Source: a virus. Taken from it: a stretch of DNA of 64,000 bases. Of the stretch, positions 8,768-32,184 are shown piece after piece. The position numbers and the translations under genes were made by a program. Below the pieces are notes generated by a model that was not told the DNA's origin, made no database searches, and saw only the letters and a program-made list of their open reading frames with translations. The stretch lies in the IMG/VR virus record IMGVR_UViG_3300045988_081376; one strand, given 5' to 3'. Position 1 is the stretch's first letter. The number at the start of each line of letters is the position of its first letter.

Positions 8768-8821
8768 GCAAAAATAAAAGAGGGGCTGAGTCCCGAGATT
8801 TTCCCGGTTGCTCAGCCCCTC
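8768..8821 (-). terminator. intrinsic terminator inside the early leftward operon
   Basis: 11-bp stem GAGGGGCTGAG (8780-8790) / CTCAGCCCCTC (8811-8821). On the minus strand it is followed by TTTTATTTTT. Confidence 0.6.
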
Positions 8822-8857
8822 TTGGCTCTTCCGACCGCCCGCTTGCGGTCAGGTACG

Positions 8858-28066: not shown

Positions 28067-28070
28067 ACAG

Positions 28071-28106
28071 GGCGGCAAAAATTCGTTTGGAGCCACTGCG
28101 TATAAT
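28071..28106 (+). promoter_or_regulatory. conserved promoter box, copy 2 (GGCGGCAAAAATTCGTTTGG ... TATAAT)
   Basis: GGCGGCAAAAATTCGTTTGGAGCCACTGCGTATAAT. Confidence 0.55.
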
Positions 28107-28111
28107 AATAC

Positions 28112-28347
28112 TTGAGGGCGGGAGATCAAACCCTCCCATGAGCGCGCGGCAGACATACGGGTGCGCCGGGTCTGCGCCGTGCAATAGTCCCGACGTCGCG
28201 CCGCCCTCGCTCCATGGCCTCCTTTCTGTTATATAAGCCCTTCCGTAAGAAAGGCTGCGCTGGTGTTGCGAGTGAATCCGTCTCCGGCGTCCCGCGGGCA
28301 GTTCGCGCAGGAACGGTGGTTGAGGTGCGGGAACGCACCTCAACCAC
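28112..28347 (+). ncRNA. ORF-free, highly structured leader or ncRNA upstream of the HNH gene
   Basis: Long-range pair GAGGGCGG (28114-21) / CCGCCCTC (28201-08) with several internal GC helices. Ends in a 14-bp GGAA-tetraloop hairpin at 28316-28347. Confidence 0.4.
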
Positions 28348-28372: not shown

Positions 28373-28912
28373 ATGGAAGAAATCTGGAAGGAAATCGAAG
28401 GGTTCCGTGGGAAATACTTCGTGAGCAATTGGGGGCGTGTCAAAAATAAAGCCGGTCGAATTATCAGCCAGCACGCTCGAAAAAGCAGATATAACTATGT
28501 TGAAGTAGAACTGTGGCTGGACACCGTCAGGCATTTGTGCAAAGTGCATCGTTTAGTGGCAAAAGCATTCGTTGAAAATCCGTGTCATTATCCAGAGGTC
28601 AATCACAAAGACGAAAACCATCTCAACAACCGAGCCGATAATTTAGAATGGTGCGACCATCTATATAATTGCAGATACGGGACGAGGGGAGCTCGCATAG
28701 GTGCAAAGCTTTCTCGATCGGTCATCCAGTTGAAAAACGGGGAAATCGTCGCCGTATGGGACAGTGTTAGAGCCGCTGAAAAAGCAGGGTACACCCGCGC
28801 AAGCATCGTAAGATGCTGTAACGGAGAATATTCGCACCATAAGGGATACCAATGGGAATTCTTTAATGCGGGCATAGCTCAGCTAAGAAGAGCGCACGAG
28901 CCATATTCGTGA
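28373..28912 (+). CDS. HNH homing endonuclease (NUMOD4-like N-terminus plus HNH_3)
   Basis: WKEIEGFRGKYFVSNWGRV, then VHRLVAKAF..EVNHKDENHLNNRADNLEW. The 3' end runs into the first tRNA-like gene. Confidence 0.8.
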   Translation: MEEIWKEIEGFRGKYFVSNWGRVKNKAGRIISQHARKSRYNYVEVELWLDTVRHLCKVHRLVAKAFVENPCHYPEVNHKDENHLNNRADNLEWCDHLYNCRYGTRGARIGAKLSRSVIQLKNGEIVAVWDSVRAAEKAGYTRASIVRCCNGEYSHHKGYQWEFFNAGIAQLRRAHEPYS

Positions 28913-28941
28913 GGTCGTGGGGGCGGAACCCACTGCCCGCA
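28868..28941 (+). tRNA. tRNA-like gene, anticodon CAU, non-canonical loops
   Basis: Perfect stems: GCGGGCA/TGCCCGC, GCTC/GAGC, CACGA/TCGTG, GTGGG/CCCAC. But the D-loop AGCTAAGAA lacks GG, the T-loop is GGCGGAA, the anticodon loop is GCCATAT (C33), and no CCA is encoded. Confidence 0.45.
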
Positions 28942-29240
28942 AAATCAAATGAAAGGGGCGAGTTATCGAATGTATTTTTACGAGCCTTCTTGCGCTGCGA
29001 TCAGGCTCATCGCGCAAATACTCGCCCTTGCGGTCTACTTGATCTCCCACCCGATCATGCCCGCAGAATCGTATCAGCGCCCCGCGCAGGCGCACAAGTG
29101 CGGTGATGGAAGACTCTATACCACGGGGTTTATCTAGTGCCGATTTGTGGGTGGGAATTGTGAAATGCAACTAATAGGGCGTTCTATCGGAGCGAGGATT
29201 GAGCGAAAGACTCCCCTCGCCGCCCTCGTTCCGATATATG

Positions 29241-29316
29241 CGGCGGTAGCTCAGCAGGCAGAGCATCAGACTTCCAATCTGAGGGTCGCGGGTTCGAGAC
29301 CCGTCCGCCGCTCCAC
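29241..29316 (+). tRNA. tRNA-Gly(UCC)
   Basis: GCGGCGG acceptor, GCTC-AGCAGGCA-GAGC, TCAGA-CTTCCAA-TCTGA, GCGGG-TTCGAGA-CCCGT, U73, encoded CCA. Confidence 0.9.
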
Positions 29317-29435
29317 GCGCCACTTTGGTGGGCGCTTCATGGTTTTTCTCCTCGCTATAAAAAGGCTCCAGCGGGCGGCAAATCGCTGGATCGGATGAAA
29401 AGCCCCGACGGCGGGAGGAAATGCCCGCCATATAT

Positions 29436-29539
29436 GGAGACGTGACAGAACGGCAATGTAAGATCCGCTCCGGGCAGTTAGGTGGGACATCTCCCGGTAG
29501 CGAAACCACCGTGCGGGGTTCGAGTCCCCGCCGTCTCCA
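29436..29539 (+). tRNA. 104-nt tRNA-like element, anticodon not assignable
   Basis: GGAGACG/CGTCTCC acceptor, ACA-GAACGGCAA-TGT D arm, CGGGG-TTCGAGT-CCCCG T arm. The centre forms crossing helices instead of an anticodon arm. Confidence 0.35.
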
Positions 29540-29630
29540 CAAAAGCGCCCCTTGCGGAGTTGGTGGCGCTATACAAGTAAAGGAAACCGACGCCAGATCG
29601 CCCGCCATGGCGTAAACAAGGCGGGGATTT

Positions 29631-29709
29631 GCATCCGTAGCTCAGAGGGGCAGAGCGTCGAGGAATTTCACGCCTCTAAATGTCGCCGGTTCGAGTCCGG
29701 CCGGATGCA
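29631..29709 (+). tRNA. tRNA-Glu(UUC)-like, 79 nt, expanded anticodon arm
   Basis: GCATCCG/CGGATGC acceptor with canonical D and T arms (GCCGG-TTCGAGT-CCGGC). Anticodon arm is GAGG-AATTTCACG-CCTC, i.e. a 9-nt loop, or ATTTCAC closed by A.G. Confidence 0.5.
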
Positions 29710-29920
29710 CTAATTCGACGTGGACGCCGCGAGTGGATAGCGTTTTAGCGGAGCAGCCGCCTGGCCGATGCGAAGTCCTGAAGTAAGGCCCTCAAGTGCC
29801 GATGTTGTAATTGCGCCTATGGTTCTCTGGCTAAAGCGGCACACGGATAGAACCCGACAGCCGGGAAAGACCGGCACAGGACCCCGCGCACCTCTCAACG
29901 ATGTGTCCCAGCGGGGACAT

Positions 29921-29995
29921 ACAGGCGTAGCCAAATGGTAAGGCATGGGACTTTGACTCCCAGATATGCAGGTTCGACCCCTGCCGCTTGCACCA
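29921..29995 (+). tRNA. tRNA-Gln(UUG)
   Basis: GCCAAATGGTAAGGC D arm, TGGGA-CTTTGAC-TCCCA, GCAGG-TTCGACC-CCTGC, A1.C72 mismatch, encoded CCA. Confidence 0.85.
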
Positions 29996-30026: not shown

Positions 30027-30302
30027 ATGACCAAACCCGAGTTGATCGACAAGCTTGCCGAGGAAGCCGGCACCACCAAGGCGCAGGCTGAGCGCGATCT
30101 CACCGCCCTGTATTCCATCATCACTGCCGCCCTGGTTGGCGGCGATAGCGTCGCCATCCCTGGTATCGGCAAGTTCGAAGTCAAGGAGCGCGCCGAGCGC
30201 AAGGGGCGCAACCCCTCGACCGGCGAAAGCGTCATCATCCCCGCGAGCAAGGCCGTCACCTTCAAGGCGGCCAAAACGCTCAAGGACGCCGTTCGCGGCT
30301 GA
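30027..30302 (+). CDS. HU/IHF-family DNA-binding protein
   Basis: MTKPELIDKLAEEAG.TKAQAE..L......I..AL..GD.V...G.GKFEVKERAERKGRNP.TGE...IPA....FKA.K.LKDAV is a full-length HU pattern. RBS AAGGAGG. Confidence 0.9.
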   Translation: MTKPELIDKLAEEAGTTKAQAERDLTALYSIITAALVGGDSVAIPGIGKFEVKERAERKGRNPSTGESVIIPASKAVTFKAAKTLKDAVRG

Positions 30303-30464: not shown

Positions 30465-31097
30465 ATGCCATCTGCCATCAACTTAACCGGCCAGCGGTTC
30501 GGACATCTTCGAGTAATCAGACCCATGAAAACACGTTCATATGGAAGTTTAAAATGGCTTTGCGTATGCGACTGTGGAAAGGAAACCATTGTCGCCGGCG
30601 GGCATCTGCGGTCAGGGCATACAAAGTCCTGCGGGTGTCAAAGAAATGCAATAAATCCTATGAAGACACACGGCGAATCGAAAACGCGCTTGTATAACGT
30701 TTGGCTTCTCATGCGGAGAAGATGCTCCAACCCAAAAGCCAAAGAATATGCTCGATACGGCGGTAGAGGTATCGCTGTTTGCGAAGAATGGCAGAACAGT
30801 TTCGAAGCGTTCCGCGACTGGGCGCTTGCAAACGGGTATAATAAAAATGCCGCCTATGGTGAATGCACCCTCGACCGCATTGATGTGAACGGGAACTACT
30901 GTCCAGAGAATTGCCGATGGGCCAATGAATTGGTTCAGGCAAACAATCGGCGTTCAAATCGCGTATTTGAAATTAACGGGCAAGCAAAAACGTTAGCAGA
31001 ATGGTGTCGGATGACCGGCGCTTGCGATTCGACAGTTCGCCGCAGAATTGCCCGTGGGGTTCGGGTAGAAAATCTATTCAAGAAAGGGCGGGTTTAA
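30465..31097 (+). CDS. HNH/AP2-like homing-endonuclease-family protein, paralog 3 (long form)
   Basis: [57 protein letters not shown]-terminal [25 protein letters not shown]. Confidence 0.7.
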
Positions 31098-31098
31098 A

Positions 31099-32184
31099 AT
31101 GTCTTATTATTTTGATAGCGCAAGCACGGAAGAAGTTTCAAGCGTTGCGTGGGAAGCCATGAAGCAAGCCCCATTTGGCAACCCATCCAGCCTGCACAGT
31201 GAAGGATGGCGCGCAAGAGAATCTTTGGAGCGTAGCCGCGCTCAAATTTTATCATTATTAGGCGCTGGCAATAACTATGAACTTTATTTCACCAGCGGAG
31301 CAACGGAGGCGTGTAATACCGCTATTCATTCCATGCAAAAAGCTGTCGGAATTTCAGAAACTTATGCGTCGCCTTTTGAACATCATGCGATATTGGAATG
31401 CGTTTCTGGGCGGGTTCTTCCAAATGATAAAGTCGCAAACACGGGTGCTTATGCGCAGATGCTCGCCAATAACGAGACTGGAGAGATTTACGATATTGCG
31501 GCCCTGCGGGGGAGTTTTTCAGGACTTCTTGCCTGCGATATAACAAGCGCCGTTGCACACATCCCCATCAACCTTCTGGATTTCAATGTGGATTACGCTA
31601 TGTTCGGCGGTCATAAATTTGGAACTCCAAAAGGCATCGGCGCTCTGATCGTCCGCGATGGCGCTCCCGTTACCCCCATGATCTGCGGCGGCAATCAGGA
31701 ACGCGGAATGCGCGGCGGAACCGAGAGCGTTGCCCTCGCCTGCGCTATGGCAGCCGCCCTTGAAAAGCGCTGCGAAACCATGTATGATGACATTGCCCGC
31801 ATCGCAGAGCTGCGCGACGAGTTCATTACCGAAATTCTCCGTCTCGTGCCGGATGCCTACATCAACGGCCCTTGGGTCATCTGCGACGCATCGCGCCGCC
31901 TGCCCAATAACGCCAACATCAGCTTTCTCGGCGTGGAATCGCAGTCCCTTGTGCTCGCCCTGTCTCGTAAGGGGCTGTGCGCCTCCAGCGGCAGCGCCTG
32001 CACCAGCGGCAGCCTTGAAGGAAGCTACGTTCTCCGCGCCATGGGGCTTTCCGAAGAGCGCGCCCGCTCCGCCGTCCGCTTCTCCCTCCCGTATCGCATT
32101 ACGCAAGGCGAGCTGAAGCAGGCGGTTGAGATCGTCGTGAGTACCGTTTCCGAGCTGCGCGCACTCTCTCCCGCTTGCCCCTGA
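31099..32184 (+). CDS. NifS/IscS-type cysteine desulfurase (class V aminotransferase fold)
   Basis: FGNPSSLHSEG, FTSGATEACN, PLP lysine in GGHKFGTPKGIGALIV, RGGTES, catalytic Cys loop ASSGSACTSG, and RFSL near the C-terminus. Confidence 0.85.
   Translation: MSYYFDSASTEEVSSVAWEAMKQAPFGNPSSLHSEGWRARESLERSRAQILSLLGAGNNYELYFTSGATEACNTAIHSMQKAVGISETYASPFEHHAILECVSGRVLPNDKVANTGAYAQMLANNETGEIYDIAALRGSFSGLLACDITSAVAHIPINLLDFNVDYAMFGGHKFGTPKGIGALIVRDGAPVTPMICGGNQERGMRGGTESVALACAMAAALEKRCETMYDDIARIAELRDEFITEILRLVPDAYINGPWVICDASRRLPNNANISFLGVESQSLVLALSRKGLCASSGSACTSGSLEGSYVLRAMGLSEERARSAVRFSLPYRITQGELKQAVEIVVSTVSELRALSPACP

Follow-up and report, generated by a model that had tools for sequence, protein, structure and literature searches.

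An island of five tRNA-shaped genes

The virus record IMGVR_UViG_3300045988_081376 of IMG/VR provides the 64,000-nucleotide (nt) stretch of DNA analysed here (the window). Genes for a tape-measure protein, a portal, a tail protein, an integrase and an anti-repressor, assigned with PHROGs, identify the phage as tailed and temperate, and its G+C content is 55%. Positions 28868–29995 hold an island of five tRNA or tRNA-like elements, all on the + strand. From 5' to 3' these are candidate 1, tRNA-Gly, candidate 3, candidate 2 and tRNA-Gln, with a spacer RNA lying between the last two. The two ordinary members, tRNA-Gly(UCC) at 29240–29315 and tRNA-Gln(UUG) at 29921–29995, both have an encoded CCA end. 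They are called by ARAGORN and score 68.6 and 60.5 bits, respectively, with the Rfam tRNA model RF00005, whose gathering score is 29 bits. The close relatives used for comparison (L028, L168, L169 and L170) are human-gut contigs from IMG/VR with 92–96% identity. In the window tRNA-Gln carries A1.C72 and A73, and in L028 and L170 it carries A1-U72 and G73.

ARAGORN in default mode and a whole-window Rfam scan with fast filters call three tRNAs only: Gly-UCC, Gln-UUG and an odd “Glu-UUC” (45.9 bits), which is candidate 2. A relaxed scan of the whole window on both strands, for a 7-base-pair (bp) acceptor stem beside a hairpin with a 5-bp stem and a 7-nt loop, returned the island genes and a few unconvincing others. 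The canonical anticodon arm, with its 5-bp stem, 7-nt loop, U33 and purine at position 37, is present in tRNA-Gly and tRNA-Gln and absent in candidates 1–3. The elbow residues G18G19 and T54-Psi55-C56 are present in candidates 2 and 3 and absent in candidate 1.

An earlier sequence-only reading of this DNA had described five cloverleaves, three of which break canonical tRNA rules. All five elements lie where it placed them, except that tRNA-Gly occupies 29240–29315 and not 29241–29316. Their stems and loops are read in the sequence as described, including the D loop, T loop, C33 and missing CCA of candidate 1 and the anticodon arm of candidate 2, with its 9-nt loop or A.G-closed UUC loop and extra nucleotides on both sides. 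Candidates 1–3 do all deviate, but unequally: the first is a deviant cloverleaf, the second an abnormal arm on a tRNA body, and the third has a centre that is not that of a tRNA. Covariance models do not fold all five as ordinary tRNAs, as four of the five pass the Rfam threshold, two of these with clear anomalies, and candidate 3 fails.

Gene order differs among the close relatives, with breakpoints that fall in tRNA T arms, so that the elements behave as cassettes. L170 carries candidate 1, tRNA-Gly, candidate 3, tRNA-Gln and candidate 2, and L168 lacks the spacer RNA and tRNA-Gln, through a deletion that fuses two T arms.

Several known kinds of element were considered for the island and rejected. 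ARAGORN finds no tmRNA in the island by default and a single implausible permuted call at a lowered threshold, and Rfam tmRNA models reach 8–12.5 bits against gathering scores of 47–84. For known aptamers, ribozymes or small RNAs, a permissive Rfam search of the centres and spacers returned only sub-threshold matches to mascRNA, IMES-4, abiF and snoZ168. A remnant of a phage attachment site (attP) was rejected because the bodies are complete cloverleaves 5.5 kilobases (kb) from the integrase gene, and not 3' tRNA fragments.

A pseudoknot replaces the anticodon arm of candidate 3

Candidate 3 (29436–29539, + strand) combines a tRNA-Ser-type body with an H-type pseudoknot that stands for both the anticodon and the variable arm. 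The body comprises the acceptor stem GGAGACG, the D arm UG-ACA-GAACGGCAA-UGU and a T arm, and the discriminator base is A. In the centre, helix S1 pairs 29467–74 with 29493–501, with one bulge, and crosses helix S2, which pairs 29481–85 with 29506–10. The two mutually crossing helices reported from the letters alone (29470–74/29493–97 and 29481–85/29506–10) are there exactly as claimed. RF00005 gave no match even at E ≤ 10 in a search of 116 nt, and the best Rfam match is mascRNA at 21.5 bits, below its gathering score of 42.5. The 3' tail reads ACAA in the window and L028, and ACCA in L168, L170 and L037.

The fold is maintained by covariation. Among four close copies, eight of the nine variable sites are unpaired, and the ninth changes pair A10-U24 to G.U (Fisher p = 0.011). 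A second lineage (L037, L039 and L040) and a third (L003, L011, L014, L020 and L032) share this architecture although their sequences differ. Across the three lineages S1 takes the forms GCU-CCGGG/CCCGG-N-AGC, GCUCGG/CC-N-GAGC and CUCCCG/CGGGAG, and S2 covaries fully (GGUGG/CCACC, GCCUGU/ACAGGC and GCCGUG(UGUG)/(CACA)CACGGC). In a seven-sequence alignment of the family, 97.4% of cells are paired, compared with 39–48% in slid-partner controls; eight pairs are changed on both sides, and three of the five S2 pairs are compensatory. A covariance model of the family (R1), run over 1.05 megabases of related loci, recovered seven strong members, five weaker matches from the third lineage (~31–34 bits, E from 9e-5 to 6e-4) and two further matches of 71 nt. 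Because the covarying pseudoknot occupies the place of the anticodon and variable arms and leaves no anticodon loop, candidate 3 cannot read a codon and is not a decoder. The features of a tRNA mimic or scaffold, namely a body with a CCA discriminator end and a centre without codon pairing, are found in candidate 3 and in many relatives.

The body itself is close to tRNA-Ser. Its D arm, UG-ACA-GAACGGNAA-UGU, is that of ordinary phage tRNA-Ser(GCU/GGA) genes (L088, L097 and L128), a likeness drawn from a filtered set, as the 14-base pattern used for the comparison returned mostly chance matches. The GGAGACG acceptor stem is likewise Ser-like, as in phage tRNA-Ser genes. Among type II tRNAs (Ser, Leu and Tyr), tRNA-Sec and allo-tRNAs, the resemblance extends to the 3-bp D stem of tRNA-Ser, its D loop, the GGAGA acceptor and the extra length between the D and T arms. 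Candidate 3 differs from type II tRNAs in having a fused pseudoknot in the place of a 7-nt anticodon loop and a separate variable hairpin, in its A73, and in joining a 7-bp acceptor stem to a 6-bp T stem (or an extra C). A type II tRNA-Ser was accordingly rejected: the acceptor and D arm match, but one pseudoknot replaces two arms. An intron-bearing tRNA was also rejected, as ARAGORN with the -i option finds none by default, and the Pro-GGG call obtained at a low threshold needs an AGAU/AUCU stem, which both the L037 group and L170 fail to conserve.

A Ser-like body of this kind could in principle be charged. By analogy with Fem ligases, which use aminoacyl-tRNA, the odd genes might encode anticodon-independent aminoacyl carriers, loaded by the host seryl-tRNA synthetase (SerRS; candidate 3) or by another synthetase, with the amino acid used outside translation. 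SerRS does not read the anticodon, and candidate 3 has the Ser-like acceptor GGAGA, C11-G24 and helix S2 at the place of a long variable arm; in addition, most relatives encode ACCA and strongly conserve the sequence of the acceptor stem. A phage enzyme that draws on a charged tRNA is documented in Mom of phage Mu, which uses Gly-tRNA-Gly to modify DNA (PMC13219725). However, no Mom, GNAT, Fem, cyclodipeptide-synthase or similar protein was found in a Pfam scan of 70 open reading frames (ORFs) of the window or in the genes beside the island, and the same scan contained no tRNA-dependent transferase, RNA ligase, CCA-adding enzyme or the like. With A73 in place of the G73 usual for tRNA-Ser, we regard such carriers as very improbable.

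Candidate 1 is a selected cloverleaf with rebuilt loops

Candidate 1 (28868–28941, + strand) has the anticodon CAU and encodes no CCA. Its anticodon loop is GCCAUAU, with C33, its D loop AGCUAAGAA lacks G18G19, and its T loop is GGCGGAA. When a 91-nt stretch was searched alone, the gene aligned end to end with RF00005 at 41.7 bits. The match was lost in whole-window and 1.4-kb Rfam searches because of the Infernal speed filters, so that deviant tRNAs can go unnoticed with these filters on. The L028 copy is reported by ARAGORN as tRNA-Met(cat).

Across the four contigs that carry candidate 1, 97.6% of cells are paired, compared with 29–48% in slid-partner controls. Three helices contain one compensatory pair each: pair 5-68 of the acceptor stem (G-C or A-U), pair 30-40 of the anticodon stem (G-C or A-U) and pair 50-64 of the T stem (U-A, U.G or C-G). 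The odd loops are kept in the relatives as well, as AGYUAAGAA in the D arm, RCCAUAU in the anticodon arm and GGYGGAA in the T arm (GGUGGAA in L168). Candidate 1 is thus a real, selected cloverleaf with non-canonical D, anticodon and T loops. As a suggestion only, G15-Y16-U17 of the D loop could pair with G54-G55-Y56 of the T loop, an arrangement in which the C/U changes keep pairing by wobble. A tRNA-Val(UAC) on an unrelated phage contig (L045, 4686–4758) has the same T loop, GGCGGAA, so this loop may recur in phage tRNAs.

Candidate 2 displays a UUC triplet on an abnormal arm

Candidate 2 (29631–29709, + strand) has the body of a tRNA, canonical D and T arms and a UUC triplet; it scores 45.9 bits with RF00005, and ARAGORN reports it as an 80-nt Glu-UUC gene. 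In the covariance-model alignment the acceptor, D and T arms are matched, and the anticodon arm is passed over as a 20-nt local insert. The centre reads GUC-GAGGA-AUUUCAC-GCCUC-UAAAUGUC and can be drawn either as a 4-bp stem with a 9-nt loop or as a 7-nt loop closed by an A.G pair, with extra nucleotides flanking it on both sides. In the 9-nt drawing candidate 2 might be a frameshift suppressor whose expanded anticodon (8–9-nt loop) reads a 4-base codon, but such tRNAs are canonical in other respects, and here additional nucleotides lie at the base of the stem and the variable region is 8 nt long. The body is generic, of the form UA-GCUC-AG..GG..A-GAGC ... GUC-GCCGG-UUCGAGU-CCGGC, and to our knowledge holds none of the non-anticodon identity elements of glutamyl-tRNA synthetase (GluRS). 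Positions 33–38, UUUCAC, correspond to the anticodon loop of bacterial tRNA-Glu. The 28-nt centre is invariant in five contigs, in which the D loop, one T-stem pair and the tail vary; the tail is ACUA in the window and ACCA in L028 and L168. Elsewhere in the same family of loci, ARAGORN labels tRNA-like genes with 8-nt anticodon loops (U[GCU]UGACCG) as “tRNA-???(tgac)”, for example at c3930–4005 of L047 and in its relatives.

Because candidates 1 and 2 keep a triplet (CAU or UUC) and A37 in the frame of a 7-nt loop, they may be working decoders (Met or Ile2-CAU, and Glu-UUC) that are insensitive to host nucleases. Their anticodon stem-loops, and in candidate 1 also the elbow, would then have been reshaped against enzymes that cut the anticodon arm, and candidate 3 would be a separate matter. 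Both genes exceed the Rfam gathering score, the UUUCAC loop of candidate 2 is that of bacterial tRNA-Glu, and the isoacceptor set of the island reads A-ending codons that the phage uses; among sampled phage genes, GAA accounts for 50% of Glu codons and GGA for 26% of Gly codons. A cysteine desulfurase gene, a potential sulfur donor for 2-thiouridine at position 34 (s2U34) and 4-thiouridine at position 8 (s4U8), is syntenic with the island. Documented defence nucleases cut the anticodon stem at positions 29–32 and 39–41, with tRNA-Met and tRNA-Ile(CAU) among their substrates, and CAU and UUU tRNAs are targeted (PMC13056530). Loop mutations in phage tRNAs have been proposed to block VapC-type cleavage (PMC10264068), and further nuclease-insensitive cases are reportedly T5 tRNA-Lys, against PARIS, and T5 tRNA-Tyr, against retrons (bioRxiv 2023.03.15.532788).

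The scale of the changes, well beyond that of any known case, speaks against this explanation. Known nuclease-insensitive phage tRNAs share with candidates 1 and 2 an altered anticodon arm in which the triplet is kept, but they carry point substitutions in an otherwise canonical arm with a normal 5-bp stem and 7-nt loop, whereas in the island U33 is lost, the elbow is altered, the stem is longer and mismatched, or a pseudoknot takes the place of the arm. Candidate 1 lacks U33, G18G19 and T54-Psi55-C56 altogether. In candidate 2 the stem is one to two pairs longer and includes two non-Watson-Crick pairs, in addition to the enlarged variable region and the generic body. Moreover, close relatives within this scaffold family carry centres with no capacity to decode. 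We therefore consider nuclease-insensitive decoders a possible but doubtful account of candidates 1 and 2.

A family of tRNA bodies with exchanged centres

Relatives of the tRNA-bodied RNAs occur in well over 100 human-gut phage contigs. Many of the tRNA-shaped genes in these loci are left uncalled by ARAGORN or receive odd labels (“tRNA-Glu”, “tRNA-Gly(ccc)” or “tRNA-???”). The largest group, defined by the acceptor stem GCAGACG/CGUCUGC and an ACCA end, comprises at least 86 distinct genes in 270 loci, with at least 39 different centres on canonical D and T arms. Its commonest centre, present in at least about 75 loci (L003–L044 and L171–L270; for example L015 3356–3423 and L003 8047–8115), is a 13-nt mini-arm that contains the invariant and Shine-Dalgarno-like GGAGGUAUG and replaces the anticodon arm. 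This centre occurs with up to nine body variants and is more conserved than the body that carries it. Other centres of the group include 4-bp stems that end in pentaloops, CAU loops that lack U33, a loop resembling that of Gly-CCC but flanked by extra nucleotides, an insert of 36 nt, and forms with only two hairpins inside the acceptor stem. In the same loci a second scaffold, with the acceptor stem GGAAGCA, bears an arm of 5 bp capped by a triloop. Constant features across variants are the acceptor stem, U8, the D arm, a GUC (G46-U47-C48) ahead of the T stem, the T arm and the encoded CCA, and the centre varies; most relatives encode CCA. As judged from these sequence features, candidates 1–3 are members of a large modular family that retains the acceptor, D and T arms and swaps the centre. 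Full-text literature searches returned no description of phage tRNA bodies with exchanged centres, which is not proof of absence.

The constancy of the body invites the explanation that the odd genes are decaying tRNA duplicates, retained purely as punctuation, that is, as sites for RNase P and RNase Z, with functionless centres. Conservation in the family is highest in the acceptor stem, T stem and CCA, down to the two-hairpin forms that consist of nothing else, and the bodies flank mRNAs and a structured RNA. Changes compatible with decay are present too: the CCA is mutated to CUA or CAA in the window lineage, and in candidate 1 a D-stem pair is mismatched in L170 and pair 31-39 is open in L168. 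Functionless centres would, however, not be expected to show the full covariation of the candidate 3 pseudoknot in three lineages, in which stems stay invariant and loops vary among close relatives. Nor would they account for the compensatory change in the anticodon stem of candidate 1 and its conserved odd loops, or for a commonest GCAGACG centre that outdoes its body in conservation. Decay to pure punctuation is consequently unlikely in our view.

A structured spacer RNA and hairpins ahead of the bodies

The interval at 29712–29878 (+ strand) encodes a spacer RNA of about 165 nt with six helices, among them a P4 × P5 pseudoknot, and an invariant 21-mer, GAUGCGAAGUCCUGAAGUAAG. This 21-mer is found in 42 IMG/VR contigs and in two phage-sized contigs from metagenome-assembled genomes (MAGs), the latter labelled Clostridia and Staphylococcaceae. 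Over 27 distinct versions, 96.3% of cells are paired and 14 pairs are changed on both sides; none of 500 shuffles reached as high a value, and slid controls stayed at or below 48%. Window searches against Rfam assigned the RNA to no family. It always starts directly after the 3' CCA end of a tRNA or tRNA-like gene, which in 21 loci is an ordinary tRNA-Thr, and it ends in a hairpin just ahead of the next tRNA or tRNA-like gene. These data make the spacer RNA a well-supported candidate for a new class of structured RNA, possibly a self-processing element at tRNA 3' ends, as its position suggests.

Two other identities were rejected. A protein-coding spacer would rest on a 57-amino-acid ORF (29768–29941) that enters tRNA-Gln and is broken by insertions and deletions in relatives, and covariation favours an RNA. 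An HDV-like or theta ribozyme is contradicted by a helix order unlike the HDV fold and by the lack of any HDV-type match in the window, a comparison made with Rfam models only and not with the published theta descriptor.

A conserved hairpin lies within a few nucleotides 5' of each body. Ahead of candidate 3, two leader hairpins at 29367–29432 (+ strand; CCAGCG..CGCUGG and GGCGGG-AGGAAAU-GCCCGCC) are kept in L028, L168 and L170 and bear a weak likeness to IMES-4 (27.1 bits against a gathering score of 48). The module CCCGCC-AUGGCGUAAACAA-GGCGGG-AUUU at 29590–29630 (+ strand), ahead of candidate 2, recurs in tRNA-Thr(CGU) leaders from over 30 contigs, and its stem covaries between CCCGCC/GGCGGG and CCCACC/GGUGGG. 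Ahead of tRNA-Gln, a hairpin at 29882–29917 (+ strand) resembles abiF, sharing the loop CCUCUCAACGAUG, at an Rfam score of 20.4 bits (gathering score 37, E = 1.3). It is 92% conserved in L002 and is also present in L019, L027 and L028. This last hairpin could mimic an RNA of an abortive-infection system.

A proposed tRNA-punctuated operon of non-coding RNAs

The island contains structure-conserved RNAs, candidate 3 has a pseudoknot at the place of the anticodon arm, and the bodies keep the parts used by tRNA-processing enzymes. Given these features, we favour, with a probability of about one half, the reading that the region is a tRNA-punctuated non-coding RNA operon, in which the tRNA body serves as a handle for processing, stability and CCA and the centre is the effector. 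Such an operon would comprise three tRNA-bodied RNAs, the pseudoknotted spacer RNA and two working tRNAs that read A-ending codons (Gly-GGA and Gln-CAA).

The island would be transcribed as one unit, because a consensus scan found no + strand promoter or terminator inside it, leader hairpins stand 5' of the bodies, and ORFs of HNH endonucleases end at or inside candidate 1 or near tRNA-Thr. Since the acceptor stem, U8, D arm, 46-48 GUC core and T arm are kept, tRNA-type cutting, a CCA end and a stable L-shape are expected. Judging from this anatomy, the transcript would be cut at each body by RNase P at the 5' side and by RNase Z or exonucleases at the 3' side, with the CCA kept or added. The same cleavages would free the neighbouring RNAs, namely the HNH mRNA, the mRNA of a small ORF, the spacer RNA and the mRNA of an HU-type protein, and each upstream piece would end in a protective hairpin. 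The anticodon domain would be an exchangeable module, represented by a pseudoknot in candidate 3, a Glu-like loop on a lengthened, mismatched stem in candidate 2, and CAU with a rebuilt anticodon loop and elbow in candidate 1. We further hypothesize that the centres mimic tRNA, engaging tRNA-recognising factors of the host, such as the ribosome or defence enzymes that cleave or modify tRNA, as non-productive substrates. This mimicry is our best guess for the role of the centres, and we infer it only.

The sequence-only reading had offered four options for the odd genes: nuclease-resistant substitutes, decoys, expanded-loop decoders, or tRNA-shaped RNAs with another function. The last of these fits candidate 3, given its covarying pseudoknot and missing anticodon loop, and agrees with the wider family, whose tRNA bodies also bear triloop or pentaloop arms, single-stranded Shine-Dalgarno-like centres and two-hairpin forms; it may also hold for candidates 1 and 2.

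Several observations weigh against the operon reading. Beyond a fold like that of a tRNA body, every step is inferred. Candidates 1 and 2 still have a plausible anticodon and A37, and as a set with Gly-UCC and Gln-UUG they would read A-ending codons only (AUA or AUG, GAA, GGA and CAA), as ordinary codon supplementation would have it. The copies of candidate 1 come from four close contigs only, and its two disrupted pairs mean that the constraint on it is not absolute and that some relaxation is possible. The invariance of the candidate 2 centre is partly an ascertainment effect, forced by the search pattern, and therefore has little weight. Processing alone does not explain the strict sequence conservation of the GCAGACG acceptor stem. 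Finally, targets of the centres were not found in the window: the longest complementary matches are 9–11 nt, no longer than those of shuffled centres. On this result, an antisense role of the three centres against phage transcripts was rejected.

Extending the operon reading beyond this island, we propose more tentatively that gut phages may carry modular tRNA-bodied effector RNAs as a general device. A constant, host-processed and CCA-ended body would display exchangeable centres (H-type pseudoknots, Shine-Dalgarno-like strands, mini-hairpins, and loops like those of tRNA-Glu or tRNA-Gly) that act on host tRNA-binding defence enzymes or on the ribosome, and would be co-transcribed with the ~165-nt RNA and a dedicated cysteine desulfurase.

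Comparison with known tRNA-like systems

Phage tRNA clusters with homing endonucleases, such as T5 and the T4 tRNA region with SegB, resemble the island in their tight clustering, in HNH-type genes at the edges and in co-transcribed small stable RNAs. They differ in that only two of the five bodies here are ordinary, the others having rebuilt or replaced anticodon domains, and in the presence of the pseudoknotted ~165-nt RNA.

A processable body of acceptor and T arm with a non-decoding or foreign centre is also known from mascRNA, mitochondrial tRNA punctuation, the tRNA-like domain of tmRNA and tRNA scaffolds. The 3' end of MALAT1 is made by RNase P at the tRNA-like mascRNA, and engineered tRNA scaffolds stabilise foreign RNAs inserted in the anticodon arm. 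In contrast to these handles, which are not bacteriophage families, the RNAs described here keep the D arm and core in full, and their centres are diverse and exchangeable.

The spacer RNA recalls structured RNAs that abut tRNAs in gut phages, including theta ribozymes (PMC10879173) and ROOL and GOLLD near tRNA islands (PMC12286853, PMC5737381), with which it shares the gut or prophage context and adjacency to tRNA 3' ends or islands. It differs from them in matching no HDV, ROOL or GOLLD model of Rfam, in its helix order, and in that the neighbouring tRNAs mostly encode CCA, which is the case for only 4.5% of theta-associated tRNAs (PMC10879173).

These tRNA-shaped RNAs seem to form a class about which little is known. 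The usual view of phage tRNA genes is that they serve as codon supplements or, lately, that they replace tRNAs destroyed by defence systems. The family described here would represent a third use, in which the tRNA body is a chassis for non-decoding RNAs conserved by covariation in more than 100 human-gut phage contigs. Should the centres work as effectors, whether as decoys, sponges or ribosome binders, the engineered tRNA scaffold would have its counterpart in nature, and the conflict between phages and hosts would gain a new layer. Such genes are overlooked or wrongly labelled by standard tRNA finders, and the fast filters of Rfam can drop a tRNA of 41.7 bits.

Genes and elements around the island

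Upstream of the island, a conserved non-coding leader at 28068–28238 (+ strand), 95% identical in L028 and L170, contains a TATAAT-like box at 28101–28106 and may, on sequence grounds, act as a promoter; the consensus scan gave no convincing match on the + strand. An HNH homing-endonuclease gene follows at 28373–28912 (+ strand; Pfam NUMOD4 and HNH_3, I-HmuI NUMOD-like, PHROG E = 4e-40), which abuts candidate 1 and whose ORF reads 45 nt into it. The gene is a lineage-specific insertion, as about 90 nt stand for window positions 28238–28865 in L028 and L170. Its homologue in L043 stops 3 nt short of tRNA-Thr. At the site of this gene, L028 has an apparent sixth tRNA-like element at about 1150–1240, with the acceptor GCCCCC/GGGGGC, the T arm CCUGG-UGCAAGU-CCAG and an ACC end.

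Between candidate 1 and tRNA-Gly, the ORF list includes a small hydrophobic frame at 28970–29137 (+ strand) of 55 amino acids from a conserved ATG. Although many amino acids differ, L028 preserves this ATG, at 28970, and the frame; it does not preserve an upstream ATG. The ORF is probably coding and may specify a small membrane protein.

Downstream, an HU-type DNA-binding protein gene directly follows the island (30028–30302, + strand; Pfam Bac_DNA_binding, E = 5.6e-32), and a second HNH endonuclease gene (30465–31097, + strand; PHROG E = 1.5e-70) separates it from the cysteine desulfurase gene. The second HNH gene, likewise a lineage-specific insertion, is absent in L028, L168 and L170, because in these contigs the desulfurase lies about 400 nt, and not about 1100 nt, after the last tRNA. 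PHROGs assignments among the neighbouring genes comprise HNH, anti-repressor, integrase and structural genes.

The desulfurase, of the IscS/NifS type, is encoded at 31099–32184 (+ strand; Pfam Aminotran_5, PDB IscS E = 1e-51). Its NCBIfam matches to NifS and IscS fall below the curated cut-offs, and its motifs are intact: GGHKFG contains the lysine for pyridoxal phosphate, and SSGSACTSGS is the loop of the catalytic cysteine. The gene occurs in 33 loci, in every one of which it shares the strand of the island and stands 0.4–3.2 kb downstream of the last tRNA, usually with HU alone between. The protein also resembles DndA and SspA, and may be linked either to tRNA thiolation (s2U34 or s4U8) or to sulfur modification of DNA. 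The 40 ORFs scanned upstream of 27.8 kb include a protein with a PAPS-reductase domain, and many related loci encode a 372-amino-acid protein that by eye resembles a ParB-type nuclease fused to a methyltransferase. Taken together with the desulfurase, these two proteins could point to DNA modification. Elsewhere in the window, positions 8808–8855 on the − strand match the Rfam gut-2 RNA motif at 44.2 bits, above its gathering score of 39.8.

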